A stretch of 64,000 bases of DNA from a virus (IMGVR_UViG_2799112420_000002:1598-65597), one strand, 5' to 3'; numbered from the stretch's first letter, positions 19,722-35,627 are shown. A program made the numbers and translations. The notes: generated by a model not told the origin, from the sequence alone.

Positions 19722-20621
19722 ATGAATAAGCAGGAGATTGTCTACCTGCCGGTCAGCAAACTGAAGCCGTACAAGAACAATCCCCGGAAGATCTCAGCCC
19801 AGGCCGTGGACGCGGTGTGCCAGGCGATACATGACGTCGGCTTTAGGAGGCCGCTGGACGTCCGTCCGGATATGACGCTGATCAACGGTCACACCCGCCT
19901 TAAGGCCGCAAAGAAGCTCGGCCTGAAGGAAGTACCGTGCATAATCTGCACAGACCTGGACGATGAAAGGATCCGGAAGTGGCGGTTGGAGGATAACAAG
20001 ACCGGCGAATATTCATCCTGGGATGCCGACAAGCTGAAAGCAGAGATCGCGGACCTGGATTTCGGAAACGCGGATTTCTTCCCGTTCGACTTTGAAACAG
20101 ACACGGAGAAGAAAAAGCGCTGGGAAGAATCCAAGGCCCTGTGTGATCTGAAGGACCGGACAGCGCTCCACAAAGCCGGGGATCTGTATTATCAATCCCT
20201 GATGAAAGTGGGAAAGACCGGCCAGCCTCTGGCAGAGATCAAGAACAAGGGAAACACCTGGATGTTCGCAGACATGGCGCTGGAGTTTATCCGGGCTACG
20301 CTGGGAGAGAACCTGAGCGCGGGAGACTGGTGCATCGTCACAACACCCAGGCGGCGGCACAGTAACGGATTTCACTTTGCAACGGCCATCTGCCAGATCA
20401 TGGCAGACGCTCTGCAGATCCCGTTCTACAAAGACGCAGTTACCTGCATCAATCACAACCGGGTCAGTCCGATCTTCGAACTGAAGATCAACCCGCAGCA
20501 GAAGAACGTGATCCTCTACGATGATATTCTGACTACTGGCTGCACACTAAAGGCCACGAGGGACCTGCTGATCGAGGCGGGATACACAGTTGTTAATCTG
20601 ATCTCCGTCGACAATCACTGA
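19722..20621 (+). CDS. ParB/Srx-N domain fused to a type I phosphoribosyltransferase (ComF-like) domain
   Basis: LKPYKNNPR..GF..P..INGHTRL.AA N-domain; C-terminal PRPP-binding loop VILYDDILTTGCTL. Confidence 0.8.
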   Translation: MNKQEIVYLPVSKLKPYKNNPRKISAQAVDAVCQAIHDVGFRRPLDVRPDMTLINGHTRLKAAKKLGLKEVPCIICTDLDDERIRKWRLEDNKTGEYSSWDADKLKAEIADLDFGNADFFPFDFETDTEKKKRWEESKALCDLKDRTALHKAGDLYYQSLMKVGKTGQPLAEIKNKGNTWMFADMALEFIRATLGENLSAGDWCIVTTPRRRHSNGFHFATAICQIMADALQIPFYKDAVTCINHNRVSPIFELKINPQQKNVILYDDILTTGCTLKATRDLLIEAGYTVVNLISVDNH

Positions 20622-20635
20622 AGGAGGATGAGACC

Positions 20636-21214
20636 ATGGCAACAAAAAAGACAAGTCCTCCGGAAGAGGCAGGGAAGCCTGTCAAGAGGACGGTCAAGAA
20701 GCAGACGCCAAAGAAATCAACGGCTCCAGCGAAAAAGACGTCTCCGAAGAAGGAGCCAGTCAAGAAAACTGTCAAGAAGCCGGAAACGCCTCCAGTGGTG
20801 CAGAATGATAATCCGCAAGCGGATCAAAAGAAACCGCGCCCGAGGTCACCAAGGAACGGAGTGGAGCTGCCTATTGGTAAACCCTTCCAAGCAGGGGAAC
20901 AAGCGCGGGAACGGGGACGCAAGGGCGGGATCAGATCCGCACAGGTAAAGAAGGAGCGCAAGACGCTCCGGGAGGAGCTGCTGGCGCTGCTCCAGATCAC
21001 GTCCAAGGACTCAGAAGGTAAAGAGCACACCCAGCAGGAACATATCTCGGCAGCACTGATCAAAGAAGCCCGGAGCGGAAACGTCCGGGCTTTTGAAACA
21101 ATCCGGGACACGATAGGCGAAAAGGCACCGGAGCGGATTGAAGCCCAGGTGGCCGGACCGAAGTTCGAGAGCCTGGATGAAGCCTTCTCAAAGATGACCG
21201 GTGATGCGCAGTGA
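20636..21214 (+). CDS. Terminase small subunit (putative)
   Basis: Lys-rich N-terminus, RGRKGGIRSA, AFETIRDTIGEK; directly before terL. Confidence 0.75.
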   Translation: MATKKTSPPEEAGKPVKRTVKKQTPKKSTAPAKKTSPKKEPVKKTVKKPETPPVVQNDNPQADQKKPRPRSPRNGVELPIGKPFQAGEQARERGRKGGIRSAQVKKERKTLREELLALLQITSKDSEGKEHTQQEHISAALIKEARSGNVRAFETIRDTIGEKAPERIEAQVAGPKFESLDEAFSKMTGDAQ

Positions 21215-22455
21215 CAGAGCAAGAGAAAGCGGCATGGTTCATCCAGCACCCGGTTGCGTTATGCCATCAGCTCGGTTACAAGCAGATGACAGAAATGCAC
21301 GGCAGATGGATCGTGAACATGGTCAACGGCACCGAGGACATGACGCTGCAAGCTCACCGCGGATCCTATAAGACAACGTGCCTGGGGGTGGCCATCGCAT
21401 TGATGATGGTCCGATTCAGGGATAAGAACATTATCTTCCTGCGGAAAACAGACACGGACGTTATCGAGGTTATCAAGAATGTAGACCGGATTCTGAATGA
21501 GCCGGTTTTCAGGGAGATATGTGAGGCGTTGACGGGAAAGCCGCTTGAAGTGGTACGGTCCACGGCGAGCGAAATCGTCACCAACTACTACTGTGCACCC
21601 AGGGGAGCGCCGCAGCTCCTGGGCATTGGTATTTCCGGATCCCTGACCGGTAAACACGCCGATCGTGTGATCACGGACGATATTATCAATCTGAAGGACC
21701 GCGTCTCCCAGGCAGAACGGGAGCACACCAAGGCCGTATATCAGGAGCTGCAGAACGTCCGGAACCCTGGTGGTCGGATGATCAACACCGGGACGCCATG
21801 GCACAAGGATGACGCGTTTGCGCTGATGCCGCCCGCGGAGGTTTGGGACTATAAGCGGACCGGCATGCTGAGCGATGAAAAGATCGCTGAGCTTCGTCGG
21901 AGCATGACGCCGTCACTGTTTGCGGCCAACTACGAGCTTCGGCACATTGCGGAAGCCGGTGCACTGTTCACAAAGGCACCGGAATACTTCGATGACGAGG
22001 AGCTGATCCTGGACGGCATGAGCCATATCGACGCCGCCTACGGCGGTGAGGACAGCACAGCGTTCACCTGCGCAAAGCGGAAGGGAGACATGATCTACAT
22101 GTACGGTCGGATCTGGCACGGGCATGTGGACACGGTCATGGATCTGATCATCGCAGACGCGCAGCGCTTCCGCTGTTTTCCGATCTACTGCGAGCGGAAC
22201 GCTGACAAGGGATATCTCAAAAAAGAGCTGTTCCGTCGGGGAATCTTCTCTACCGGCTACGACGAGAAAGAAAACAAGTACGTTAAGATTGCAACGTTCC
22301 TCCGGAAATGGTGGCCGAACATTCTTTGGCACCCGCAGACAGACCCGGAGTACCTGGAAGAAATCCTGGATTATACGATTCAGGCCCAGCACGATGACGC
22401 GCCGGACAGCGCTGCTTGTGCTTGCAGAATCCTGGATAAAGGACTTTTTGGATAA
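21211..22455 (+). CDS. Terminase large subunit
   Basis: Walker A-like HRGSYKTT, Walker B VITDDI, NTGTPWH, nuclease HIDAAYGG and HDDAPDS. Confidence 0.92.
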   Translation: MTEQEKAAWFIQHPVALCHQLGYKQMTEMHGRWIVNMVNGTEDMTLQAHRGSYKTTCLGVAIALMMVRFRDKNIIFLRKTDTDVIEVIKNVDRILNEPVFREICEALTGKPLEVVRSTASEIVTNYYCAPRGAPQLLGIGISGSLTGKHADRVITDDIINLKDRVSQAEREHTKAVYQELQNVRNPGGRMINTGTPWHKDDAFALMPPAEVWDYKRTGMLSDEKIAELRRSMTPSLFAANYELRHIAEAGALFTKAPEYFDDEELILDGMSHIDAAYGGEDSTAFTCAKRKGDMIYMYGRIWHGHVDTVMDLIIADAQRFRCFPIYCERNADKGYLKKELFRRGIFSTGYDEKENKYVKIATFLRKWWPNILWHPQTDPEYLEEILDYTIQAQHDDAPDSAACACRILDKGLFG

Positions 22456-22470
22456 AGGAGAGTGAGCCGC

Positions 22471-25257
22471 ATGGCGAAAAAGCGCAGACCTGCAACAGGG
22501 ACCGTCCAGCAGACGGCTCCGCTGCAGAAAAAACAGACCCCAGAGATTCGCCGTGCGGTTGACGGCTTTATCAATACACTGGCCTACCTGGGAGAAGCGT
22601 CGGAACTGAATAAGGCAAACGACTACGAACGGCATTCGATCACACACGACTATGAAACGCTGACGGTTATGTACCGTGAAAACTGGCTCGCGAAACGGAT
22701 CATCGATACGCCTTGCGAGGATATGACCCGGGCATGGTACACAGTTTCCTCCGAGCTTGAACAGGATAAACTGGACGAGCTGGCAAAACTGGAAGCGAAG
22801 CACAATATCAAGCAGGAAGTCACGAACATGCTGCGCTGGGCGCGTCTGTACGGCGGCGCTGCGGCTGTGATGGTCATAAAAGGCCAGGAAGACATGCTGG
22901 ATCAGCCGATGGATTACGACACGCTGATGCCTGGTTGCTTCCGGGGCCTTATCGTTGTGGACCGGATCAGGGGCCTGTATCCGTCGCTGGAACTGGAAGA
23001 CGATATGGATGATCCTGAATTCGGTTATCCGCGATATTACGACGTTGTGCTGGACGATACAACCGGCGAGACGCTGCGGATCCATCACAGTCGGATGCTG
23101 ATGGCCAGAGGCCGGATGCTGCCGATTCAGGAAGAAATCAACGAAGAATACTGGGGAGCCAGTGAAATCGAGCACGTATACGAAGAGCTTCAGAAACGGA
23201 ACGCTACCAGCGCCAACATCGCGCAGCTGGTCTTCCAGGCGAACGTATCAGCCATGCGCATCGGAAACTTCGGCGAAGCGCTGGCGATGGGCACCGAGGA
23301 ACAGAAGCGCAAGGTGATGGAGTCCATCTTCAACGTGAACCGGATCAAAAACAGCTTCGGTCTCCTGCTGATGGGCAATGAAGACAGCTACGAACAGCAT
23401 CCGTACTCATTCGCCGGAATCGCGGAGGTTTACGAGTCCTTCATGATGGACATGGCCGGTGCGGCTGAGATCCCGGCCACAAAGCTGTTTGGTCGGTCGC
23501 CTCAGGGCATGAACGCTACCGGCGAGTCCGACATGAAGAACTATTATGAGATGCTGGCACAGCTGCAGGAGCGGAACCTCCGTCCCGCAATGGAGAAGCT
23601 GCTGCCGGTAATGGCCATGAGCCTCTGGGGCATGATTCCGGAAGACATGGAGATCGTGTTCGAACCTCTGATGACCACGACACCGGACCAAAGAGCGGAT
23701 ATCATGACCAAACAGGCCGGAGCGATCATCCAGGCGTTCAGCGCCGGATTGATCTCACAGAAAACAGCGCTGCTTGAGCTGCAGGAACAGGGCAAATCAA
23801 TCGGAGCCTGGACGAATATCACCGATGAGGACATTGAGAACGCCGACGATGAGGTTGACAGCGGTGAAGGGATGGAAGATCCGATGGGCATGATGGGCCC
23901 GGGAGGACCTGGAGCGGGTGGAATGCCTCCGGAAGGCGCTACACCGCCGGAAGAGGGACAACCGATGCCAGAGCAGCCGATGCCTGAGCAGGAAGAATCC
24001 CCGGAAGCCGAGCAGCCTGAACAGGATGAAGAAATAGATCTGGACAAGGTCCATGAGCTTAAAGAGCGGATCCATCGGATTCTCGAGGAAGGCAAGGAAG
24101 AAACCGAAGACGGCGGTCCCGGAAGCGGCCCAAGGCCCGGGTACCATAAAAACGGAACGAACCTGATTGAACGGGCGAAGTTCATCGCCAATCCGACGGC
24201 CGGGATGCCTGAAGTAAAGTCGGCTCCGCGGACAAAGGCCAGCGTGAACCAGGCAAACCGGGAGCGCGAGCAATGGTCAAATCTCACGCTGCATCAGAAG
24301 GTTGCCGGAAACGCCCAGCAGGAGCGGCACATGCGGAAGATGAAGCGCCAGGTCATGAAGGCCGCAGCCAAGGGTGATCTGGAAACGGCTCGCGCAATCG
24401 TGAAAAAGAACCGGCACTACTGGTCGAATGATCCGGAAAGCACCCAGAAGGTCCAGAGCGAAACCCTGAAGCGGCAGAGAGCTGTGAAAAGCGGATTTCT
24501 GAATGATCTGATCGGATCCGTGAAGCGCTTCCTCTCCGGAGACGCGGAATGGAACGAGGGAGATCATCCGCGTGGACAGCCCGGGAACGCTGGCCAGTTC
24601 GCACCGAAAGGCGGCGGCAGCTCAGAATCTTCGAAAAACGAAGAAAATTCGTCCTCTGGAACGGTTGCTAATAGTCCGCAAGCGGGATATAATAAAGCAG
24701 AGTCTCCGAAACAGTCTTTCACAAAGACGGTTGCGAAGAAATTCCGGGAGACGTTCCATGCTGCGAAGGCCGCAGTTGCAAAGGACCGTCCGCAGGATGC
24801 ATGGCGCGTAGACAGCACATACACGGATAACGATTACGAACACATGGACTGTTTCACAACACAAGGTGGATCAGCGGTCGCTGTCCATGATGGAGATATT
24901 GTCAGTGTGTGCGCAAACCCAAATGACAAGACAACCAGAGGGCGAGACCTTCTGTCTCATGCGGTTAGCATGGGTGGAAAGAAGCTGGATGCTTTCGGAA
25001 AGCTCTACGGCTTTTACATCAAAAACGGGTTCGAGCCCGTGAGCTGGTGCGAATTCGATGAGAACTACGCGCCGGATGGCTGGACAAAGGGCAGAGACGA
25101 TCCAGAACCGGTCATCTTCTTTAAATACACCGGCCGCAGCCGCGATGAGATTGCGAATGATTTCGGAAACGACCACTATGAGTACGTGAAGCGCGTCGAT
25201 GCCAGCGCGGATTATGACGCCGCAAAGGAAGTCAGAGACAAAAGCCTGAAAGGATGA
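22471..25257 (+). CDS. DUF1073-type portal protein with a ~440-aa C-terminal extension ending in a GNAT-like domain
   Basis: Portal core (YRENWLAKRIID, WARLYGG, IPATKLFG.SP.G.NATGESD), Pro/Glu linker, DGGPGSG and DAEW..HPRG..GQF motifs, GNAT-like LL.HA..GG..LD..GFY.K.GF. Confidence 0.85.
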   Translation: MAKKRRPATGTVQQTAPLQKKQTPEIRRAVDGFINTLAYLGEASELNKANDYERHSITHDYETLTVMYRENWLAKRIIDTPCEDMTRAWYTVSSELEQDKLDELAKLEAKHNIKQEVTNMLRWARLYGGAAAVMVIKGQEDMLDQPMDYDTLMPGCFRGLIVVDRIRGLYPSLELEDDMDDPEFGYPRYYDVVLDDTTGETLRIHHSRMLMARGRMLPIQEEINEEYWGASEIEHVYEELQKRNATSANIAQLVFQANVSAMRIGNFGEALAMGTEEQKRKVMESIFNVNRIKNSFGLLLMGNEDSYEQHPYSFAGIAEVYESFMMDMAGAAEIPATKLFGRSPQGMNATGESDMKNYYEMLAQLQERNLRPAMEKLLPVMAMSLWGMIPEDMEIVFEPLMTTTPDQRADIMTKQAGAIIQAFSAGLISQKTALLELQEQGKSIGAWTNITDEDIENADDEVDSGEGMEDPMGMMGPGGPGAGGMPPEGATPPEEGQPMPEQPMPEQEESPEAEQPEQDEEIDLDKVHELKERIHRILEEGKEETEDGGPGSGPRPGYHKNGTNLIERAKFIANPTAGMPEVKSAPRTKASVNQANREREQWSNLTLHQKVAGNAQQERHMRKMKRQVMKAAAKGDLETARAIVKKNRHYWSNDPESTQKVQSETLKRQRAVKSGFLNDLIGSVKRFLSGDAEWNEGDHPRGQPGNAGQFAPKGGGSSESSKNEENSSSGTVANSPQAGYNKAESPKQSFTKTVAKKFRETFHAAKAAVAKDRPQDAWRVDSTYTDNDYEHMDCFTTQGGSAVAVHDGDIVSVCANPNDKTTRGRDLLSHAVSMGGKKLDAFGKLYGFYIKNGFEPVSWCEFDENYAPDGWTKGRDDPEPVIFFKYTGRSRDEIANDFGNDHYEYVKRVDASADYDAAKEVRDKSLKG
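24665..24693 (+). promoter_or_regulatory. Promoter embedded in the portal coding sequence
   Basis: TTGCTA, 17-bp spacer, TATAAT. Spacer ATAGTCCGCAAGCGGGA matches the promoters at 32261 and 60568. Confidence 0.65.
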
Positions 25258-25496
25258 TCAGCATGGCGACTTATTCCCAGTTCTACGATGCCGTCAGGGA
25301 GAACGTCAAGCAGCGCGTTGCTCGTTTTGGCGAGCCGGAAGCGGTGGTGGATGAATTTCTGAAAGCAGAGGAAGAACAGATCAAAGGCGAATACCGTCAT
25401 TACACAGAAGACGAAGTTCCGGATGGAATGACACCGGAAGCGTTTCTGAAATCCTGCATCGAGAGCATATCCTACTGCCTCGAGATGTGTTTCTGA
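25254..25496 (+). CDS. Small acidic protein, putative immunity partner of the portal C-terminal domain
   Basis: 80 aa, overlaps the portal stop codon, followed by a terminator. Confidence 0.55.
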   Translation: MISMATYSQFYDAVRENVKQRVARFGEPEAVVDEFLKAEEEQIKGEYRHYTEDEVPDGMTPEAFLKSCIESISYCLEMCF

Positions 25497-25515
25497 TACC
25501 AAAACAACAACCGAG

Positions 25516-25546
25516 AAGCTCGACAGTTCGCTGCCGGGCTTTTCTT
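25516..25546 (+). terminator. Rho-independent terminator
   Basis: AAGCTCGACAG-ttcg-CTGCCGGGCTT followed by TTCTT. Confidence 0.65.
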
Positions 25547-25559
25547 ATACCTTAAAACA

Positions 25560-25775
25560 GCCCCAGCCAGATCCGGGTGTTCTTCTTCCTCCGGCACCTG
25601 TGAAATGGTGCGTCAGCGGGGAGGCTGGGGCCTGGTAAGCCTGAAGCCCGCCCAGTTGCCTGTCTGGGCCTTTATGTGGTGCGCAACGGAAATTGTCGAC
25701 AGCGACTTTCTTCATGTTTCAGATACCTCCTGATCATATATGCGCTTAAATGGGCACGAATTCCTGTGCCAGCCA
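25560..25775 (+). ncRNA. Candidate structured non-coding element upstream of muF
   Basis: Nested stems GCCCCAGCC/GGCTGGGGC (25560-25631), GCACC/GGTGC, GCCCAG/CTGGGC and GGCAC/GTGCC; no convincing ORF. Confidence 0.35.
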
Positions 25776-25796
25776 CATTTCAAAGGGAGTGATCGG

Positions 25797-26633
25797 ATGC
25801 CGAGCGTCAGCAAGCACGAAGAGCGAAGGTTCTGGAAGGACCTGTGCAAGCTCTTCAACGGTCTGTTGGATGCCGTAAAAGAAAGAGGGTCCTCCGCGCT
25901 GACGGAAGATGGCCCGGAATTCAGGCAGCTCATGCAATCAGATCGAATGAGCCAGTTCCTCAACAGAATCGTCGGAAGAATGGTACGGACGCAGCGGAAA
26001 GTGAGCGCCAACTCCTGGAGAGAGGCAGCATCAAAATCCACAAACGGACAGGAGCTTTTTAATCTGATCTCCGGAGAGATGAATGGTCCAGTCGGAGCAC
26101 GTGTGCAGCAGCTCATTGCCGAAAATGCCGCGTTTATCAAAACGCTGCCGGAGCAGTGGGCGAAATACGTCACACAGTATGCTTCCCGGGAGGCGCTGAA
26201 GGGCAAACGGCCGGAAGCGGTCGAAGCGGAGCTCAGGAAGATCATACCGGAGCACATGGCGAAAAACCTGAAATGCATCGCCAGAACGGAATGCGCAAAG
26301 GCGAATGCGGCCATTGTACAGGCGAGAGCGGAAAACTGCGGAATCCGGGCGTACATCTGGCGCTGCGTGAAGGATGAACGATCCAGAGACTCACACAGGG
26401 GAATGGACGGGATTCTGGTCTTCTATGATGATCCACCAAATCCGGAAGCATTATTCGGTGGAGAAAAGCCATACGGGAGCTATCATGCGGGGAACACGTT
26501 CAACTGCAGATGCTACCAGGAGCCAGTAATAGACATTTCATATCTTCCGGACGTCCTGTTGGTTCATGACCACGGAGCGATCCGGAGGATGACAAAGGGC
26601 CAAATTATGAAAGGATTCGGGAAAATAGCGTAA
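25797..26633 (+). CDS. MuF / SPP1 gp7-like minor head protein, short form without a toxin domain
   Basis: IARTE.AKAN, YIWRCVKDERSRDSH, HAGNTFNCRC motifs. Confidence 0.9.
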   Translation: MPSVSKHEERRFWKDLCKLFNGLLDAVKERGSSALTEDGPEFRQLMQSDRMSQFLNRIVGRMVRTQRKVSANSWREAASKSTNGQELFNLISGEMNGPVGARVQQLIAENAAFIKTLPEQWAKYVTQYASREALKGKRPEAVEAELRKIIPEHMAKNLKCIARTECAKANAAIVQARAENCGIRAYIWRCVKDERSRDSHRGMDGILVFYDDPPNPEALFGGEKPYGSYHAGNTFNCRCYQEPVIDISYLPDVLLVHDHGAIRRMTKGQIMKGFGKIA

Positions 26634-26645
26634 GGGGGTGGCCGG

Positions 26646-28286
26646 ATGAGCGCAGGGAAAGTATTTCGCGGGATCATGAAACTCCTGGGGAAAGATGAGG
26701 CTCTCCGGCTGGCGAATCGTATCCTGAATCTTGATGGAGGTCCTGGATCTGGAAACTTTGGACATAAAGGAAGACCGGGGAAGGTCGGCGGCAGTGGAGA
26801 AGGCGGTGGATCCGCGTTCAGAACACAGAGCGCTTCCGGAGCCTATATCGGTATTCAGAAAGCTGCAGCCTTCCAGGGAATTAAGAAGATCGCGCAAAAG
26901 TCGAAGAATGCAAAAGATTTCATCGACAGTCTTGATAAGAAACAGCGTGACATGGTCGCAGCGCAGCACAGGCAGTCCGGGACGAAGGAACGAATCATGG
27001 ACTATGTGGAGCGCATGCGGCAGCTGATGTGCTCTCAGAAACCAGAAAAGACGGTTCCGTTTAAGATGGTTGAAGGGAAGGACATCTCAGAAACGGCCGA
27101 ATGGGACGGGAAGACCTACACGGAGCCGAAATTCGGACAGGTGATCGATACCGAGATCGAACACGCGATTGTCCAGCAGGGCTTTAATGGACCGCCGAAG
27201 GTTGTTTCCCAGGAAGAGATCCTGGACATCATCGAAAAACATCCGGAAATGCCGGTTCTGTTTCGGTCCTATGCGGCCCTGGGGGATGAAGCGGTTCAGG
27301 CGTTTGACGATATGCTGGAAAACGGCGAATGGTACGTAGACTGCTCGAATGGCGGTGCGCAATACGGGCAAGGCATGTACTGCGCTGGCGTATACGGGAG
27401 CTCCGATTACAGCGGAGCGCTTGAGGAAATGCGGCATTACAGGCATGTTTCAATGAAAAACGCGAGAGCCAGATGGTGCCCGCAGCTGGCAGATGATGAG
27501 GATCGGATAAATGTGGACGGAAAAGCGGTTGTATTCCGTCAGGCCGACATGAAGAAAACTGAGGAAGCAAAACCTCCGGAGGCTGCTGAAGTTGTTGCGA
27601 TGGTAAAATCATCGTGGACAACGGAAACGGTGAAGGGATATTTCCTGCCGATGGATCCGGAAGACCCGGACAGCCCTTTGGAATTCACATACTACAGCGA
27701 CGATGAAGGCCACAACACCATTCCAGCAGACAAGGTTCCATACTGGGGACCGATCAGCCGGACAGAAACGCCTCCTGCAGCGTCCGCTTCTACGCGCATG
27801 ATGACACTGGATCCCAGCTCGAAGATCATTGCCTACAAAGATTTGCTTGAAATCAGGAGAAAGTCGGAAAACATCATCAGAGAAAACAAGAGAAGAGAAG
27901 CAGAAGAGGCAGATCAGTTCTTTGGCAAAGAGCTTACAGATGATGCTACATGCGAGCGGATACTGTACAGGACAATGATGGGAAGGGGAACGGGAGATCT
28001 GAGCCCTGAAGCAATAAAAAAGGTCCTCGCATGGAAGGAAAGCCACAAGGATCGGTTGGAAGAAATAAAAAAATTCGCAGAGCTGCAAGCTGAAAAAACT
28101 GACAAGGCCCGCGAAGAAGCGAAAAAATACGAAAGGTTCAGCAACATGGATCCAGGTGTGCTTGCGACGTATCTCGGATATGACGCGATCAACGCGGAAG
28201 GCCATGGATCAACGAACAGCTACACGGTCGTTCTGAACAGGACAAAGCTGATTCTCAGCCAATCCAGACTGGACGTAGCGTCTTAA
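26646..28286 (+). CDS. Putative head-cargo protein with an ADP-ribosyltransferase-like domain
   Basis: 29-aa leader, then DGGPGSGNFGHKGRPGKVGGSG; LFRSY...YGQGMY...GYDAI...YTVVLNRT pattern. The ART assignment is inference. Confidence 0.6.
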   Translation: MSAGKVFRGIMKLLGKDEALRLANRILNLDGGPGSGNFGHKGRPGKVGGSGEGGGSAFRTQSASGAYIGIQKAAAFQGIKKIAQKSKNAKDFIDSLDKKQRDMVAAQHRQSGTKERIMDYVERMRQLMCSQKPEKTVPFKMVEGKDISETAEWDGKTYTEPKFGQVIDTEIEHAIVQQGFNGPPKVVSQEEILDIIEKHPEMPVLFRSYAALGDEAVQAFDDMLENGEWYVDCSNGGAQYGQGMYCAGVYGSSDYSGALEEMRHYRHVSMKNARARWCPQLADDEDRINVDGKAVVFRQADMKKTEEAKPPEAAEVVAMVKSSWTTETVKGYFLPMDPEDPDSPLEFTYYSDDEGHNTIPADKVPYWGPISRTETPPAASASTRMMTLDPSSKIIAYKDLLEIRRKSENIIRENKRREAEEADQFFGKELTDDATCERILYRTMMGRGTGDLSPEAIKKVLAWKESHKDRLEEIKKFAELQAEKTDKAREEAKKYERFSNMDPGVLATYLGYDAINAEGHGSTNSYTVVLNRTKLILSQSRLDVAS

Positions 28287-28302
28287 GAAAGAAGGTGGAC
28301 AG

Positions 28303-30360
28303 ATGAAATTCAGCAGGAACCCTGAATCCGGCCAGCTGGAGATCTATACGGATGAAGGCGTTTACCTGGGAGTCATGTCCACCATGGGTGATGACATCGG
28401 AGAAAGATCCGCAGAGGACGGAGGCCCGGGCTCCGGCAATTATGGTCACAAAGGCCGTCCCGGGAAAGTTGGAGGATCCGGCCCTGGCGGCGGGAAGCAG
28501 TACCGAGGCGGCAGATCTGACATTGGCTATTATAACAGTCGGAAAGACTGGCTGAACGGGCTGCAGGGAGAACGGCAGCATGAAGCGGTCCGGAAAATTG
28601 CGAACGCGAAGAAGGATTATGAGGCGAAGCTTGCTGCAAAGCAGAAGATCGAACAGCTTCGCAATCGAGGATTCCTCACACACGCGGAAGCAGAAGAGAG
28701 GATCAAAGAAGGGAAGCTCGAAAAAGTCAGGGAAGGGATGACCCCGGAAGAGTACATTCTGACAGCTGGAAACCGCAGCGACCGCCAGGATATGCTGAGT
28801 ATGATGAAGGAGGCAAGGACCTGGGACGAAACCAAACAGCGACTGGTCAACGAGAACCTTTCCGACGATGAAAAGAAGATCTATCAGGCTATCAGGGAAG
28901 CGGATCTGGAAAAAGTTGACGTTCCGACCGGTGCAAGGGTTATGGACGTCATGACGCTGCTTGAGGCGAAGGCCATGGGTATTATAGAATCCGAAATTGA
29001 TGTGCCGGATGATATCCAGTATATCATCGGAACAAAAGAAGCCCCAGCGCCTCCGAAACCGAAAATCCCGCAGAATTCAGACGAAAACAACGCCTGGCTG
29101 GAAGGACAGCCGCAGGAAAAACAGGATTACATTCTTGGCATCGTCAGAGGCCTTGGGATCAACCCACAGGCTTTTGGCGGCGATATTGCCATGAATTACG
29201 CTGAAAAGCGGATGATGATGGACGTCTGGAACGGAAACGAAAAAGCAATATGGGAATGCAGACGTTATCTCGATGCGAAAGATGGAATGCTCGGAACGAA
29301 CTTCTTTAAGCAGTGCCAGGAAGCCGCGGATCCGAACAGCGCATCAAACATCGGAAACCTCGGAGACAAGCCTTCGATTATTATGAGTATGTTCCTGGAA
29401 TCTCTCGCAGACGAACAGCGGGAAGACAACCCGGCAACCTACGTTTCTTCGCATGGAGACATCCTGGAGTCCGGATTCCTGCATGATAAAGACGTCCCAA
29501 AGTCGGCAAAAGCCGCTTATCTGCAGCTGAAGGCCATTGCGCTTGGACAAGAGACGTATGCGGTCCGTCCGGATGATGTAGCCAAAGAGCTGCATAAGTA
29601 CATGAACGAGCGGAAGCGGATCCGTCAGGAGGAAAAAGAATTCGGTCCGAAGCGAAAAGCCTTCAAACAGGATCGCGAGAAGCGCCAGAAGGAATACTCA
29701 AACGCAAAGAACGCCACAGAGGTCGGAGACGCGATGCGGAAGAGCGGCATGTTCAGAAATGGCGCGAAAACTGAGCTGAAAAAAGTAAGCCTGGAATGCG
29801 CGAAGGAAGTCGCTACCGCGTACGAAAACGTCATGGATAAATACCCGTTCCTGATCGGCCAGCTGAACGGAATTGATGAAGGGGAAACAGCCAACAGCTC
29901 AACATACGCCTCCTGCAACATGACTTTCGGCGGGAAGGTATCTCTGAACGCTCATGACAGGTATTTCGGAAACCTGAACAGTTTGCTGTCAACCTACAGC
30001 GAAGACGTGAGGACAGGATATCATCCGGCCGGAACAAACGGAACTTCCGTTATTACGCATGAAATCGGACACGCGCTGGACGGCTATCTGTCTCAGCGAG
30101 GCGTAAATGGTGCCAGACTCCTCAGCACAGACGCAAATGCTTTCTCTGGTATTTTAAGGCGAAGCGTGTTAAAATCATTGAAGATGACAAAAGCATCCGT
30201 AAGAACAGAACTCAGCCGATACGCGGAAAAGAACGCATACGAGTGGTTCGCAGAGTGTTTCGCGGAAGCCATGACATCGGAAAATCCGAGGCCTATGGCC
30301 AAGGAAATGATGCGTCAGCTGGACGAGATTCTGAAGAAGGAGGGGCTGATCAGTGCCTGA
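28303..30360 (+). CDS. Putative head-cargo protein with a C-terminal zincin metallopeptidase domain
   Basis: 38-aa leader, then DGGPGSGNYGHKGRPGKVGGSG; HEIGH ... SRYA..N.YEWFAECF. Confidence 0.75.
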   Translation: MKFSRNPESGQLEIYTDEGVYLGVMSTMGDDIGERSAEDGGPGSGNYGHKGRPGKVGGSGPGGGKQYRGGRSDIGYYNSRKDWLNGLQGERQHEAVRKIANAKKDYEAKLAAKQKIEQLRNRGFLTHAEAEERIKEGKLEKVREGMTPEEYILTAGNRSDRQDMLSMMKEARTWDETKQRLVNENLSDDEKKIYQAIREADLEKVDVPTGARVMDVMTLLEAKAMGIIESEIDVPDDIQYIIGTKEAPAPPKPKIPQNSDENNAWLEGQPQEKQDYILGIVRGLGINPQAFGGDIAMNYAEKRMMMDVWNGNEKAIWECRRYLDAKDGMLGTNFFKQCQEAADPNSASNIGNLGDKPSIIMSMFLESLADEQREDNPATYVSSHGDILESGFLHDKDVPKSAKAAYLQLKAIALGQETYAVRPDDVAKELHKYMNERKRIRQEEKEFGPKRKAFKQDREKRQKEYSNAKNATEVGDAMRKSGMFRNGAKTELKKVSLECAKEVATAYENVMDKYPFLIGQLNGIDEGETANSSTYASCNMTFGGKVSLNAHDRYFGNLNSLLSTYSEDVRTGYHPAGTNGTSVITHEIGHALDGYLSQRGVNGARLLSTDANAFSGILRRSVLKSLKMTKASVRTELSRYAEKNAYEWFAECFAEAMTSENPRPMAKEMMRQLDEILKKEGLISA

Positions 30361-30571
30361 TTACTACAAACAGTATTGTGATTGGATTGACTGGTCCGTG
30401 TACGACGGGCTCTCTCCTGAAGAGTCTGACGAGCTGGAAGCGGAGCATGTGGAAAAGTATGGACTGAATCACGTTCTCAGGCCAGACGCGCCGAAAGAGG
30501 CCGTAGAAGCTTGGGAAATGGATGCAATTCAGACGCGCAAGGCCAGACAGGCCGGTGAAATCATCAACTGA
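30353..30571 (+). CDS. Small acidic protein, putative immunity protein
   Basis: 72 aa, overlaps the peptidase stop codon; LRPDAPKEAVEAWE; followed by a terminator. Confidence 0.55.
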   Translation: MPDYYKQYCDWIDWSVYDGLSPEESDELEAEHVEKYGLNHVLRPDAPKEAVEAWEMDAIQTRKARQAGEIIN

Positions 30572-30584
30572 TAACGGATAATAC

Positions 30585-30620
30585 ATAAAAGCCCGACACG
30601 CTGCAGTGCCGGGCTTTTAT
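30585..30620 (+). terminator. Rho-independent terminator (possibly bidirectional)
   Basis: ATAAAAGCCCGACAC/GTGCCGGGCTTTTAT. Confidence 0.7.
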
Positions 30621-30644
30621 CATGCCCAAAGGAGGGGTGAAGCA

Positions 30645-32264
30645 TTGAGCGATAAATACATCAGAATGCTACGAAAACTTGCTTTAGACCGAAGTCTGAA
30701 TTCCGGAACAGCGGAAAAGCTCCTGAAAATGCACACGCGGGACGCAGAATTCGTTGAGAGCGAGCACCCGCGCGGAAAAGGCGGGAAGTTCGTCAAGAAA
30801 GGATCCGGATCATATTCTGGAGGCGGGAGCTCTTCCGGGAAATCCGAGGGAGGTCAAATAGGGTATAAACCTTTTAGTTTTGGCCAGAAGAAGCAAGAAC
30901 TCAAAGTGAATAAACGTCCGGAAGAAAAGGAAGAGCGGAAGTGGTACGATCCGGAGGCTCAGTGGGAGCGGCATAAACAGGCAGAGAAGGTTCAGGTTGT
31001 CGATCCGCAGGGGAATCCGGTCAATTGGAACCCGAGCACAGAATATAACCGGGGCCCTGTCGGTAGTACTACAAGCGGAAAATGGTCATTGACAGGGAAG
31101 AAAACGCCCGAGGAGCTGGAGGAACTGAACAGGGTCGCAAAGGAACAAGGATTTGCGAACTATGAGCACATGCGTCTGTGCGCAAAAGGGCTTGCGAATC
31201 CGAGGGACAAGTATCCCAGGCTTCCGGACAGCGATGGCGTAGTAAGCGCGGTCCGAGCGCAGAAAATCACCAAAGCCGGTGACAAGTCCATGCAGCATAA
31301 GGTTTCGGAGATGGATTCCGGCAAACGGTTTGCACCAAAACCCGGAGAGATGCGCGAAGGAAATAAGTTTGCTGAAGGATCCGCTTTCAACAATCCAAAG
31401 ACCGGCAGACCGTCCAAAGAGCTGACCAAAGGCACCGGAGCAACGAAGCTCAGTGTTGATGACCTTTATAAAGAGAAAAGACCGAAAGACAGACATACGA
31501 TCAATCAGTACCTGGATGACAATGGAAACCTGACGCCAGAACGAGAAGAACTTCACGCCCAGTCGGTTGAGAATATCTTTGCTGGTAAAAAACCGAAAGG
31601 TCCTGGTGAAAAGAAAACATTCACCATGTTTGGAGGCGGGTCCGCTGCCGGGAAAGGCGGTTTGAGCGATCCGAAAAGGTGCAAAAACTTCCAGAGCAGC
31701 TTCTTTGCGAGCGGTACGCCAGACAAGGATAAAACAGCGACAATCGATCCGGACGAACTGAAGAAGGATATTCCGGAGTATCGGGAGATGCAGGAGACAG
31801 ATCCGGATCATGCGGCCGCTGTTGCTCATGAAGAAAGCTCTGCGCTTGCTAAGCGTGCTATGCAAGCTGCTTTTGACAACGGATATGACTGCACGCTGGA
31901 TGGAACCGGAGACGGGTCTGTTGAAAGTGTAAAAAAGAAGATTCAACAGGCCAGAGATGCTGGATACGAGGTTAACGCATGTTACGTGACCTGTCCGACA
32001 GAAATGGCCGTGGAGCGGTCCATAGAGCGTGGGAAAAGGACAAAGCGCAACGTTCCACTGGAAGCTGTTCGGAGTATTCACAGCAAGGTTTCTCATATCT
32101 TCCCGAAGGTTGCCAGCGAGTTTGATCATGTGGCACTGTTCGACACTTCCAAAGATGGAAAGCCAGTGCTGATTGCAGAATGTCAGCGCGGTGGAGAGAT
32201 CGACATTAAAAACCAGGAGCTTTGGGACGCATTCATCGCCAAAGATCATGAAACGGATGATTGA
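30645..32264 (+). CDS. Putative head-cargo protein with a C-terminal zeta-toxin-like P-loop kinase
   Basis: TTG start after GGAGGGG; 32-aa leader, then DAEFVESEHPRGKGGKF; GGGSAAGK, IDPDELK, HEES, TLDGT. Confidence 0.8.
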   Translation: MSDKYIRMLRKLALDRSLNSGTAEKLLKMHTRDAEFVESEHPRGKGGKFVKKGSGSYSGGGSSSGKSEGGQIGYKPFSFGQKKQELKVNKRPEEKEERKWYDPEAQWERHKQAEKVQVVDPQGNPVNWNPSTEYNRGPVGSTTSGKWSLTGKKTPEELEELNRVAKEQGFANYEHMRLCAKGLANPRDKYPRLPDSDGVVSAVRAQKITKAGDKSMQHKVSEMDSGKRFAPKPGEMREGNKFAEGSAFNNPKTGRPSKELTKGTGATKLSVDDLYKEKRPKDRHTINQYLDDNGNLTPEREELHAQSVENIFAGKKPKGPGEKKTFTMFGGGSAAGKGGLSDPKRCKNFQSSFFASGTPDKDKTATIDPDELKKDIPEYREMQETDPDHAAAVAHEESSALAKRAMQAAFDNGYDCTLDGTGDGSVESVKKKIQQARDAGYEVNACYVTCPTEMAVERSIERGKRTKRNVPLEAVRSIHSKVSHIFPKVASEFDHVALFDTSKDGKPVLIAECQRGGEIDIKNQELWDAFIAKDHETDD

Positions 32265-32289: not shown

Positions 32290-32311
32290 TAAAGCGGAGG
32301 AGGTGGGCAAG

Positions 32312-32491
32312 ATGCTGAATGAACACGATATGGTTTCGCTGGTGCAGTGCGCAGCGGACCGAGATGAAGAATCCGCGAAGAATTTCGGTCCGGAAGGCGT
32401 AAAATTCTACAATGAACTTGTCAAACAGATGGAAGAGGACAAGAAAAACGGTGTAAAATGCACATACTCGATTCCGTCAAGTTTAGACTAA
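32312..32491 (+). CDS. Small protein, putative antitoxin/immunity for the zeta-like kinase
   Basis: Own promoter, GGAGGAGG RBS and terminator; 59 aa. Confidence 0.6.
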   Translation: MLNEHDMVSLVQCAADRDEESAKNFGPEGVKFYNELVKQMEEDKKNGVKCTYSIPSSLD

Positions 32492-32858: not shown

Positions 32859-34136
32859 ATGCTGTACTATGCGAGCCGGATATCGGACAACATGTGCAGA
32901 CGGGAGCCGGAAGGCTATCTGTTCTGCCTGAATGTTCCGATTGCCAGGTCCGGCACTCAGGAATATGCCCGGGATGAAATCGGTCAGGACGGGGATGGGC
33001 TCGTGAAGATCTTCCGGCCGGAAGACGAGGTCTTTTCTACCGAGACAATGTCATCTTTTGAGGGCATGCCGGTTACAAACGATCATCCGGATACCGAGGA
33101 AGGCGTAAACATCAAAAACGTGCAGGACCTGTCAAAGGGCCACTGCCAGAATGTACGCCGCGGAACCGGGAAAGACAGGGATCTGCTGATCGCGGACCTT
33201 GTGATCCAGGATGAACGAACAATCAAAGACATCATGGATGGGAAGCGGGAAATATCCTGCGGATACACCTATGAACTCAGCGAAGAAAACGGGAAATATT
33301 TCCAAAGGCAAATACGCGGGAACCACATCGCCATTGTGGACAGAGGGCGAGCCGGTCACCGCGTTTGCATAAAAGACTCTGCCCCAAATAACGAAAGGAG
33401 AAAATCCAACATGCCGAAAACCAAGAAAAATCACGTCGGCATTCTCTCTCGGATGCTGGCAGCTCTGGTAGCGACCGATGCTGAGCCGGAAGTTCTCGAA
33501 GAAGCGGTTGATGCCATCGAAGATATCACCGAAGGCGCTGCCGTCGTGGCTCCCGCTGAACCGGTCGCTCCCGAAGAGAAAACCGAGGACGAAGCCCCCG
33601 CGGATCCCATGGCCGCGATTATGGCCCGCCTGGACAAGCTGGAGGCTGCTGTAGCCGCCAAGGGTGCTGACGAAGAGCCTGAAGAGGAAGTTGATCCTCT
33701 GAAGAAGCTCGAGGATGACCTGGACCAGATGGAGAAACAGGCCGAAGAAGAGCCGGTTACCCCGGATGAAGATCCTGACGAGCAGGAATCCCATTTCGTG
33801 GATCCTGACGAGATCAACGAGCAGGACGAAGACGGCGAGGAACTGGAAGAGGAAGTCGAAGAAGAATCCGTTGACTGCAAGGCCCGTGACGCCATGCGCG
33901 AAGCGATCAAGACCATGCGTCCGTTCCTGTCCAAGCTTCCGAAGGCTGAGCAGAAAAAAGCTTCTGACGCCATGGCCGCTTCCCTGCGGAAAGCCTATGG
34001 AATGCCCGAAAAGGCCACGAGAAATGATTACCTGAAGCTGAAGGGCCGCAAACGGTCCGCTGACAGCGCGAAGGACACTTCCGCGGACCTGGGCAAGTCC
34101 ATTATGGCCAAGCGGAACCCCAACTACAGCAAGTAA
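32859..34136 (+). CDS. DUF2213-type prohead protease/scaffold
   Basis: VPIARSG.Q.Y, PVTNDHP, REISCGY, IRGNHIAIVDRGRAG; acidic scaffold-like C-terminal half. Confidence 0.88.
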   Translation: MLYYASRISDNMCRREPEGYLFCLNVPIARSGTQEYARDEIGQDGDGLVKIFRPEDEVFSTETMSSFEGMPVTNDHPDTEEGVNIKNVQDLSKGHCQNVRRGTGKDRDLLIADLVIQDERTIKDIMDGKREISCGYTYELSEENGKYFQRQIRGNHIAIVDRGRAGHRVCIKDSAPNNERRKSNMPKTKKNHVGILSRMLAALVATDAEPEVLEEAVDAIEDITEGAAVVAPAEPVAPEEKTEDEAPADPMAAIMARLDKLEAAVAAKGADEEPEEEVDPLKKLEDDLDQMEKQAEEEPVTPDEDPDEQESHFVDPDEINEQDEDGEELEEEVEEESVDCKARDAMREAIKTMRPFLSKLPKAEQKKASDAMAASLRKAYGMPEKATRNDYLKLKGRKRSADSAKDTSADLGKSIMAKRNPNYSK

Positions 34137-34151
34137 GAAAGGAGAATCATC

Positions 34152-34616
34152 ATGGCTGGTAAAGTTCTGAAATTTACGAACGGCTATCCCGGAGCGGTAT
34201 CCCGCAGCATCGATGACATCATCGAGAGCTTTGCGAACGGGGAAGCCTCTGATCCGATCCTGTTCGGCGCTCCTGTTGCGCTGAATGCGGGCAAGGTGGT
34301 CAACGTCTCCACCACGTACTATGACGTGATCGGCGTCGCCGTCCGGACCGTGAAGACGGAGGAAACCTATGGCGGCAATGATCCGAAGTACAAGGCGAAG
34401 GATATGGTCGACGTGATCAAGCGCGGTACTGTTGCTATGGTCGTACCCGCTGCGCTGACCGTTGCCGCGGGAGATCCTGTGCACATCGTCAAGGCCACCG
34501 GCGCTCTGGCTAAGGCCGCTGACAGCACCAATACGGTTGCTACCGGCTGGAAGTTCAAGGGACCGAAGGATGACAACAACGTTGTCGAGGTCGTTCTCTG
34601 CGAACGCGCCTTCTAA
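34152..34616 (+). CDS. Head decoration/cement protein
   Basis: GYPGAVSR..FG.PV; located between the protease and the MCP. Confidence 0.75.
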   Translation: MAGKVLKFTNGYPGAVSRSIDDIIESFANGEASDPILFGAPVALNAGKVVNVSTTYYDVIGVAVRTVKTEETYGGNDPKYKAKDMVDVIKRGTVAMVVPAALTVAAGDPVHIVKATGALAKAADSTNTVATGWKFKGPKDDNNVVEVVLCERAF

Positions 34617-34640
34617 TTCTGAGAAAGGAGAACAAACAGT

Positions 34641-35627
34641 ATGAATAAGTTTCCCAAAACGCCCATGCTGGCGAAAGACAGCCGCATCCGGGCAAACGAC
34701 GGCCTTGCCTTCCTGGAAAAGGAACTGGAAAAGGTAGACAGCAAGCTCCTCGAGCCGCTGGACGCTACCCTGTGGCCCCGTGACATGCCCGTGAAGACCG
34801 GCGGCGGTTTCATTGAGAATATCGCTGCGATCGCTGTGGAGTATGCCTCTACCGGCGGCGCTGAAGGCGACGGCAACCTGATGTTCGATAACGCCAATGA
34901 CATCCCCGTCATGCAGGCGAATTTCGACAAGACCATCTGGCGTGTGTTCAACTGGGCCGAGTATTGGACCCTGTCCTACATCCAGAAGGAAAAGTTCAAG
35001 AAGCTGGCCCGGAACGCCGAAGACATCCTGACCAAGGGCATCCACAAGCACTTCGATCAGTTCTGCGATACGAATGTGTACAAAGGATTCACCAAGGTCG
35101 GCACCACTGGTCTGCTGAACAATGCCAATATTACCCGTGCTGACGCGGCCAACAACGCCGCCAACACCAGCAGCGCCTGGGAAGACAAGTCCGCGGATGA
35201 AATCCTGGCTGACGTCAACGACATCCTGTCCAAGGTCTGGGCCGCTAACGAAATGGCCGAAGATGCCCTGCCGAATCACATCCTGATCCCGGTCGAGCAG
35301 TTTGGCTCCATCGTCACCAGGAAAGTCGGTACCACCGGCGATAAGTCCATCCTGACTTACATCCTGGAAAACAATATCACCACCCAGCAGGGCAAAAAGC
35401 TGGTCATTTCTCCCTGCAAGTACTGCAAGGGCATCGGCACCAACAGCGCGGATCGTATGGTCGCGTACATCAACAAGGCCGAAATGGTCGAGTTCGAAAT
35501 GACCGCTCCGCTGCATCGCTGGGAGACCGAGCGCGTGAACCTGTCCTACAAGACTCCGTTCGTCGCTCAGATCTCTGAAGTGAAGTTCAAGTATCCGACT
35601 ACGGTCCGGTACGTGGACGGCATCTGA
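34641..35627 (+). CDS. Major capsid protein (DUF2184/HK97-fold family)
   Basis: DGLAFLEKELE.VD..LLEP, GLLN, ILADVN, LPNHILIP, YPTTVRYVDGI. Confidence 0.9.
   Translation: MNKFPKTPMLAKDSRIRANDGLAFLEKELEKVDSKLLEPLDATLWPRDMPVKTGGGFIENIAAIAVEYASTGGAEGDGNLMFDNANDIPVMQANFDKTIWRVFNWAEYWTLSYIQKEKFKKLARNAEDILTKGIHKHFDQFCDTNVYKGFTKVGTTGLLNNANITRADAANNAANTSSAWEDKSADEILADVNDILSKVWAANEMAEDALPNHILIPVEQFGSIVTRKVGTTGDKSILTYILENNITTQQGKKLVISPCKYCKGIGTNSADRMVAYINKAEMVEFEMTAPLHRWETERVNLSYKTPFVAQISEVKFKYPTTVRYVDGI

Follow-up and report, generated by a model that had tools for sequence, protein, structure and literature searches.

Phages inject enzymes along with their DNA, sequence surveys have listed very large 'polyvalent' proteins that combine several enzymes, and we know of no account of how such cargo is chosen and separated outside T4, phiKZ and P1. 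In T4, the proteins IPI-III and Alt carry a capsid targeting sequence, a leader of ~10 residues at the extreme N-terminus that serves as the signal and is removed by the gp21 prohead protease, while in encapsulins the cargo-loading peptides usually stand at the C-terminus and attach to the shell protein. Jamet et al. reportedly described the MuF polymorphic toxins of temperate phages in 2017. The present analysis concerns a DNA stretch of 64,000 nucleotides (nt) (IMGVR_UViG_2799112420_000002:1598-65597, the window in what follows), which belongs to a prophage in a 3.2-Mb genome and in which two short peptides, a Gly-rich tag (M1) and an HPRG tag (M2), are found in front of four predicted enzyme modules encoded in the head-gene block. 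The closest described systems are the polyvalent proteins of phages and conjugative elements (Iyer, Burroughs, Anand, de Souza and Aravind 2017, PMC5512222) and the MuF toxin family (PMC12226406).

The tagged proteins resemble the polyvalent proteins in their domains (an ADP-ribosyltransferase (ART) domain, ART-PolyVal, zincin peptidase, zeta kinase, GNAT, NUDIX, and MuF or portal fusions), in their location beside portal or terminase genes, and in the idea of capsid packaging and delivery, and the tagged giant proteins match Pfam families from that work. The window differs in that its modules are separate genes and not one polypeptide: each of the three free cargo genes holds one recognisable catalytic module (only the portal-GNAT fusion is multi-domain), in contrast to the at least two effector domains per polypeptide of the polyvalent proteins. 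No junction motif is mentioned in the text of PMC5512222, where 'motif' refers to catalytic sites and zincin peptidases are proposed as the processing enzymes. Common to the window and the MuF toxins is a head protein that carries a toxin-like enzyme, in many cases followed by a small gene, and many homologues of the ART-like module have it fused to MuF; here, however, the MuF protein stands alone and the modules carry the tag, whereas the listed MuF fusions are devoid of it. The first-pass annotation of this DNA had set the cassette apart from known systems, which holds for the toxin-free MuF of the window and is too strong for the modules and context of polyvalent proteins and for the ART-like module that is fused to MuF in many relatives. 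The likeness to the T4 capsid targeting sequence lies in an N-terminal address on unrelated cargo, including an ART, coupled to head-protease cleavage (here proposed); unlike in T4, the leader varies, the conserved element stands behind it and recurs in polyproteins, and there is no sequence likeness. Encapsulins and the P1 DarA-Hdf system (PMC12810830) are similar in that short peptides or adaptors fix the cargo inside an HK97-fold shell, and encapsulins differ in that the window tags are N-terminal to each module and have a candidate partner only. The modules, the setting in which they occur and the notion of injected cargo are already known (PMC5512222; MuF toxins, PMC12226406); neither of the two tags was found in the papers searched.

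The copies of the two tags in the window are the following:

24109-24156, + strand: shortened M1 variant in the portal tail, kept at the same place in the portal orthologues of the related loci L030, L014, L026 and L037 (an intermediate form is found in L067)
24541-24600, + strand: HPRG tag (M2), long form, before the GNAT-fold module (portal amino acids (aa) 694-713)
26733-26798, + strand: Gly-rich tag (M1), copy 1, 22 residues (546-aa protein P0003, aa 30-51)
28417-28482, + strand: Gly-rich tag (M1), copy 2 (685-aa protein P0004, aa 39-60)
30741-30791, + strand: HPRG tag (M2), short form (zeta gene, aa 46-62)

The two full M1 copies are nearly identical as peptides and clearly different as DNA. 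Compared over 23 codons, 3 codons are identical, 18 differ only synonymously and 2 non-synonymously (25 of the 69 bases differ), while the leaders in front of the copies and the sequences downstream are unrelated. The unrelated flanks together with the synonymous differences indicate selection on the peptide and not recent gene conversion. A 32-position M1 profile matches these two sites with E values of 6e-19 and 2e-18, finds no other site in the 3.2-Mb genome, and has no match in 300 other genomes of the same order; a chance origin of the pair is excluded. The same pattern holds more widely, as in 348 within-genome M1 pairs a median of 60% of the same-residue codons differ, and about 12 positions are 95–100% conserved in 510 M1 copies. 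These results agree with the first-pass annotation, which had read the near-identical peptide with synonymous DNA divergence as purifying selection. All of its tag coordinates were right, and it had correctly recognised the second motif common to the portal (24541) and the zeta gene (30741), the leaders before the tags, and a cassette of enzyme modules in the head-gene block, apart from a short MuF without a toxin domain.

The leaders before M1 are 29 aa long in cargo gene 1 and 38 aa in cargo gene 2, and the leader of the zeta gene is 32 aa if translation starts at the TTG codon at 30645. The tag region of the 546-aa protein (aa 28–55) is disordered in the AlphaFold2 (AF2) model. M1 is basic in the window's lineage, and in the 510 copies the residue after R-P-G is most often Glu (51%). 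A weak L-R-x-L/K preference is present before M1; a likeness to bacteriocin double-glycine leaders was rejected on the register, and nothing else that it could be compared with was matched either. The first six residues of the M1 core correspond to what we take to be the start of an adenylate-kinase-type P-loop. At 26736-26753 the Lys of the P-loop is replaced by Asn and the segment is disordered, and the likeness is probably a coincidence.

The M1 profile was searched against 1.84 billion representative proteins, with 2,633 representative proteins found at E<=1e-3 and 496 at E<=1e-10, some of them with up to 9 copies. Neighbouring copies are separated by a median of 230 aa (510 copies), which corresponds to one module per interval. 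The Pfam domains detected in 52 M1 proteins comprise ART-PolyVal, ADPrib_exo_Tox, MuF, GNATs, zeta, several zincins, Fic, RadC and ParB_N. The first-pass annotation had suggested such a survey of the domains attached to its motifs, and the outcome is the domain set of the polyvalent proteins. For the ART-like protein 358 homologues were found. Its homologues nearly all have M1 at about residues 30–50, and the longer ones repeat M1 before other modules. M1 is present in 75 viral loci and in 8 loci from bacterial genomes and metagenome-assembled genomes (MAGs); the latter scan used very narrow patterns, and its 8 loci say little on host range. M2 was found in 32 loci in the scan of viral contigs. 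It occurs in long and short forms, with up to four copies per protein, either ~20–60 residues from the N-terminus or between modules, in proteins that hold topoisomerase IB, NUDIX, ARTs, zeta and LPD1. Two portal families (PF06381, PF04860) and two protease families (DUF2213, Peptidase_S78) are represented among the M2-tagged proteins. The M1 profile and the M2 scan bear out that the motifs are real, selected and portable, and that they mark cargo modules across many phages. Both tags are absent from PDB sequences, and searches of GenBank phage records at the DNA and protein level with the cassette, both cargo proteins and both tag peptides gave no match, although tag matches may have been masked by the low-complexity filter; the match to cultured phages is confined to the portal core.

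The commonest neighbours of tag loci are MuF, the PF06381 portal (Portal_3), DUF2213, the cement protein and the PF09950 capsid protein. Among 106 loci the portal is found in 62, MuF in 51, DUF2213 in 37 and the major capsid protein (MCP) in 37, and in four of five further loci devoid of those families, sampled by PHROG, terminase, portal or protease genes are present. The M1-tagged open reading frames (ORFs) lie on one strand, often as runs of adjacent genes. In a Clostridia MAG (L086:9509-13017) the tagged cargo is located ~5 kb downstream of the capsid gene and not between portal and protease, a position which implies that the tag marks cargo also outside the usual slot.

The tags behave as prefixes. 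Of 132 proteins, 67% have their first M1 no more than 60 aa from the N-terminus (median 33), whereas only 4% have the last M1 that close to the C-terminus, a median of 270 residues following it. In fusions the tag comes after portal, protease or MuF domains: a portal core followed by tag and modules is found in about 30 loci, and a DUF2213 or Peptidase_S78 protease domain followed by tag and modules in several. By contrast, neither tag is present in any of the 51 free MuF proteins of the related loci, and none of the 37 MCPs is tagged. Judged by these arrangements, each tag is a peptide under selection that goes with the module downstream of it and is probably read by something that the same phage encodes, and the tags occur only on proteins that would end up inside the head. 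In one 961-aa protein (L057:6015-8900) a DUF2213-like protease domain is flanked by two M1 tags, an arrangement in which the protease itself is a tagged module.

The two tags can replace one another. On the window portal the GNAT module follows M2, and L056 and L083 have it as a free gene with M1 in front; the zeta module stands behind M2 in the window and behind M1 in L056, L077 and L083, and the same conserved portal segment is followed by M2 in the window and by M1 in L037 and L067. The modules that are separate in the window are fused in close relatives (1,177 aa in L014, 1,395 aa in L051 and 1,507 aa in L030), and within the proteins of L014 and L051 the ART-like module aligns from the tag onward. 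The module swaps and the shared positions show that the two tags are equivalent and that the genes split and fuse at or near the tags. The 38-aa leader of the zincin gene (28303-28416) recurs before unrelated modules in L014, L026, L051 and L075. By eye, this leader also resembles a short strand pair found after the ART-like domain in the fused relatives (P0099, P0100); with such a likeness to the tail of an upstream module, the gene split seems to have fallen slightly upstream of the tag.

M1 also varies from genome to genome in a consistent manner. In 38 distinct loci with at least two M1 copies, the identity in the variable columns is 0.49 within loci versus 0.32 between them, a difference not reached in any of 2,000 shuffles, and gene conversion is not the cause of this dialect, as a median of 60% of the same-residue codons differ. 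The residue before the GG of M1 is uniform within each genome and differs between genomes (D in seven, K in seven, E in seven, N in five and R in five; L or A also occur). All 16 Asp-type loci share the head type of the window. The emphasis that the first-pass annotation placed on this Asp is justified for the window's phage lineage, in which it is invariant in every M1 copy, and does not extend to the Gly-rich tag in general, as only 8–18% of the 510 copies have it. The lineage-wise replacement of Asp by K, R, E, N or L/A is what would be expected if the residue touches a partner that differs between lineages, for instance the head protease. For M2, in our own count, an Asp occurs within 3 residues upstream of the aromatic residue in 34 of the 35 copies of DUF2213 loci, while all 5 copies of the 2 S78 loci have Lys or Arg at that site. 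The S78 protease of HK97 cuts its capsid protein after a Lys. Taken with this cut, the Asp versus Lys/Arg contrast of M2 suggests recognition of the edge residue by the head protease, and an edge residue fixed within each genome speaks for a partner specific to the phage, with the DUF2213 head protease as the most likely one.

The DUF2213 protein of the window belongs to PHROG families 530 and 12864, both labelled 'head maturation protease', and residues R53, H76, G94, S133, H156, A158 and R164 are invariant in 38 aligned sequences; no solved relative was found by sequence. In its N-terminal domain (32859-33410) His76, Ser133 and His156 would fit a Ser-His-His protease like the herpesvirus assemblins. 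The putative scaffolding protein gp24 of the related phage Pa193 is presumably the counterpart of the window protein. In Pa193, gp24 keeps a helix-turn-helix on the capsid interior (PMC11456595). For the capsid protein, the first-pass annotation had pointed to a D-G site near the N-terminus, and this did not stand: D-G was rejected as a shared cleavage site, as the dipeptide is kept only in the closest relatives. The comparison covered the capsid site only, and the similar sites that the annotation had named near the N-termini of the portal and MuF are not supported either. In most capsid proteins of this head type (34641-34720 in the window; MCPs of L006-L118) there is an Asp column ~8 residues before the first conserved helix. 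The first 65 capsid residues are unseen in phage E217 (PMC10329688), and this does not agree with a capsid cut near residue 20.

We propose that the tag is a combined address and cleavage boundary for capsid cargo that is read by the phage head machinery, and we give this reading about an even chance of being right. The cassette would be a split form of a phage 'polyvalent' cargo protein, with four modules (GNAT-fold, ART-like, zincin and zeta kinase) made together with the head proteins, carried in the capsid and presumably released with the DNA into the next host, each module being preceded by either of two interchangeable disordered tags. The reader of the tag would be a component of the phage's own head-assembly machinery, most likely the DUF2213 protease-scaffold protein. 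The tag would have two jobs, which can be likened to those of the T4 capsid targeting sequence: it would bring the free modules into the assembling procapsid, and it would mark the N-terminal boundary at which whatever stands upstream, be it a leader or an anchor (portal, protease or MuF), is removed; in the window's lineage the cut would fall on or beside the Asp that precedes the tag. The selection on the peptides, their prefix position, the head-gene context, the interchange of the tags and their genome-specific variants are observed, while we infer that the modules are packaged, cut and delivered, and which partner reads the tags. A broader version, in which the tags are a general portable cargo code of tailed phages, a disordered prefix would be enough for both loading and cutting, and the edge residue would set the protease (Asp for the DUF2213 heads of this lineage, Lys/Arg for S78), is possible and, in our judgement, doubtful.

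Several observations weigh against the combined address and cleavage role. Among the 120 best listed homologues of the ART-like protein, ~30 are MuF fusions (P0089-P0124) that have no tag, which means that the tag is not needed for every cargo. Agathobaculum phage AB434P2, the nearest cultured phage and one with the same head type, has no tagged genes. The tags occur with more than one portal and protease family, which makes a single universal partner unlikely, and no conserved tag-like or D-G site is found in the capsid protein, a known kind of protease substrate. The conserved core, at ~20 residues, is much longer than a usual protease site. The genome-specific dialect could come partly from shared descent of the tags within a lineage and not from co-adaptation, and the S78 contrast of M2 comes from two loci only, a small sample in which related genomes are not independent.

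The length of the core would be better explained if the tag were purely a cargo-loading peptide that docks to an interior component of the head (MuF, the scaffold part of DUF2213, the portal crown or the inner surface of the capsid) with no cleavage, since ~20 residues suit a binding peptide better than a cleavage site. Such docking is also in line with the homologues that are fused directly to MuF and have no tag, with the free MuF being the commonest untagged neighbour, with the protease being tagged in some phages, as expected of something that needs loading, and with the DarA-Hdf pairs of P1, which bind the inner capsid surface (PMC12810830). However, a tag before every module of a 9-module protein is needless for loading one polypeptide, tags are also kept where a portal or protease anchor already places the module within the capsid, and the ease with which split and fused forms exchange at the tag is better understood if the fused forms are cut there, so we regard docking without cleavage as rather unlikely. 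If the tags are cut, the enzyme might instead be the cargo's own zincin (C-terminus of 28303-30360), acting on the polyproteins in the capsid or after injection. The cassette does contain a zincin module, zincin families are found among the tagged proteins, and cleavage by peptidases of this kind is a main theme of Iyer et al. (PMC5512222); yet a zincin is present in a minority of the multi-tag proteins (seven single-member families among the 52 proteins, by Pfam), a relative of this particular zincin is found in 8 of the 106 loci, and the dialect residue tracks the head type, with no link to the zincin seen. Cleavage by the cargo itself therefore appears very unlikely.

A role during or after ejection, as a handle for passage through the tail, as a binding site for phage DNA or for the recruitment of a host factor (chaperone), would fit a tag that is disordered and, in this lineage, basic, and one tag per module would be sensible if each module were handled singly. 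The Glu that most often follows R-P-G means that the tag is not generally basic, the genome-specific dialect indicates a partner encoded by the phage and not by the host, and nothing ties the tags to DNA; we see only a slim chance for this role. The shuffling of modules at tags that are Gly-rich and disordered could also suggest passive flexible linkers or DNA-level recombination joints with no function of the peptide. A plain linker is not expected to show the strict prefix asymmetry, nor to keep ~12 positions 95–100% conserved while the synonymous sites are saturated, and a recombination joint in the DNA was rejected given the synonymous-site data, as the peptide is kept and the DNA is not. 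Passive joints of either kind are extremely improbable. The combined address and cleavage role, with the protease-scaffold protein as the reader, is the most economical model.

The first-pass annotation had named four different enzymes behind the tags, and these are recognised with unequal strength. The zeta kinase is secure at the level of sequence: PF06414 matches aa 328–513 with an E value of 4.8e-27 (95.1 bits versus a cut-off of 22.3), and a Walker A motif is present at aa 344–351. The C-terminal module of the portal appears to be a GNAT by fold only. Its 216 aa were modeled with a predicted local distance difference test (pLDDT) score of 81, all listed Foldseek matches are GNAT acetyltransferases (best E 3e-5, probability 0.85–1.0, template modeling (TM) score 0.4–0.6), and no Pfam match was found. 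The AF2 model of the 546-aa protein (pLDDT 84) shows a helical leader, the disordered tag and a small helical subdomain before a large domain. Over aa 199–546 it reaches VIA Z values of 5.5–6.4 with the catalytic domains of the ART toxins diphtheria toxin, cholix, SAIP and MbcT, a range graded 'middling' by the tool, and 5.6 with a pre-ejectosome chain of cyanophage A4, while the whole model has neither a Foldseek nor a Pfam match; the fold is suggestive, not conclusive, of an ART-like enzyme. The C-terminus of the 685-aa protein may be a zincin, on the weak evidence of an HExxH motif at 30058-30072 with a downstream Glu and of Peptidase_M90 and ATLF matches (E 2e-4 to 6e-4, 20–21.5 bits) that are below the cut-offs of 26–27.

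All these genes lie on the + strand between the terminase (21211-22455) and the capsid gene (34641-35627), where the portal, MuF, the three large cargo genes, small ORFs, DUF2213 and the cement protein are arranged as follows:

22462-25257, + strand: portal protein, 931 aa (PF06381, E 3e-107 at aa 67–422)
25254-25496, + strand: acidic ORF of 80 aa that overlaps the portal stop codon, kept after the portal in L005, L007 and L081
25740-26633, + strand: stand-alone MuF head protein, 297 aa (PF04233, E 5e-16, the only family found)
26646-28286, + strand: cargo gene 1, 546 aa (P0003), with helical leader, Gly-rich tag, small helical subdomain and ART-like domain with inserts
28303-30360, + strand: cargo gene 2, 685 aa (P0004), with leader, Gly-rich tag, middle module and C-terminal zincin-like metallopeptidase
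30353-30571, + strand: ORF of 72 aa after the zincin gene, with an 89% identical ORF in the same place in L006
30606-32264, + strand: cargo gene 3, with leader, short form of the HPRG tag, middle region and zeta-toxin-type kinase
32303-32491, + strand: ORF of 62 aa after the zeta gene, kept in L006, L030 and L081
32859-34136, + strand: DUF2213 protein, a putative head maturation protease at the N-terminus followed by an acidic, scaffold-like C-terminal half (PF09979, E 1e-48)
34152-35627, + strand: cement protein and major capsid protein (PF22758, E 1.6e-23; PF09950, E 1.4e-64)

The portal consists, in order, of the core, an acidic/Pro-rich linker, the shortened Gly-rich tag, a conserved middle segment, the HPRG tag and the C-terminal GNAT-fold module. 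The MuF protein has neither tag nor toxin domain, and its true start is probably near 25797, as the relatives align from aa 20 onward. Cargo gene 3 likely starts at the TTG codon at 30645, which is preceded by the best ribosome-binding site. The portal-GNAT, zincin and zeta genes are each followed directly by a small ORF (80, 72 and 62 aa), and relatives L005, L006, L007, L030 and L081 keep these ORFs at the corresponding positions; the ART-like gene (26646-28286) has none after it. No family match was obtained for the three in family searches, and a role in immunity or as partners is possible. Ahead of the terminase genes, 19722-20621 encodes a ParB N-terminal domain (E 2.6e-8) linked to a region that weakly matches a phosphoribosyltransferase (E 5.6e-5, short of the cut-off).

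The tags offer a concrete handle for predicting both the cut site of a cargo protein and the protein that reads it, and, if the proposal is true, adding a tag to a reporter protein would be an easy means of getting it into a capsid. With the tags, the cargo genes of uncultured gut and rumen phages become recognisable from their sequence, whatever the kind of enzyme, known or not.

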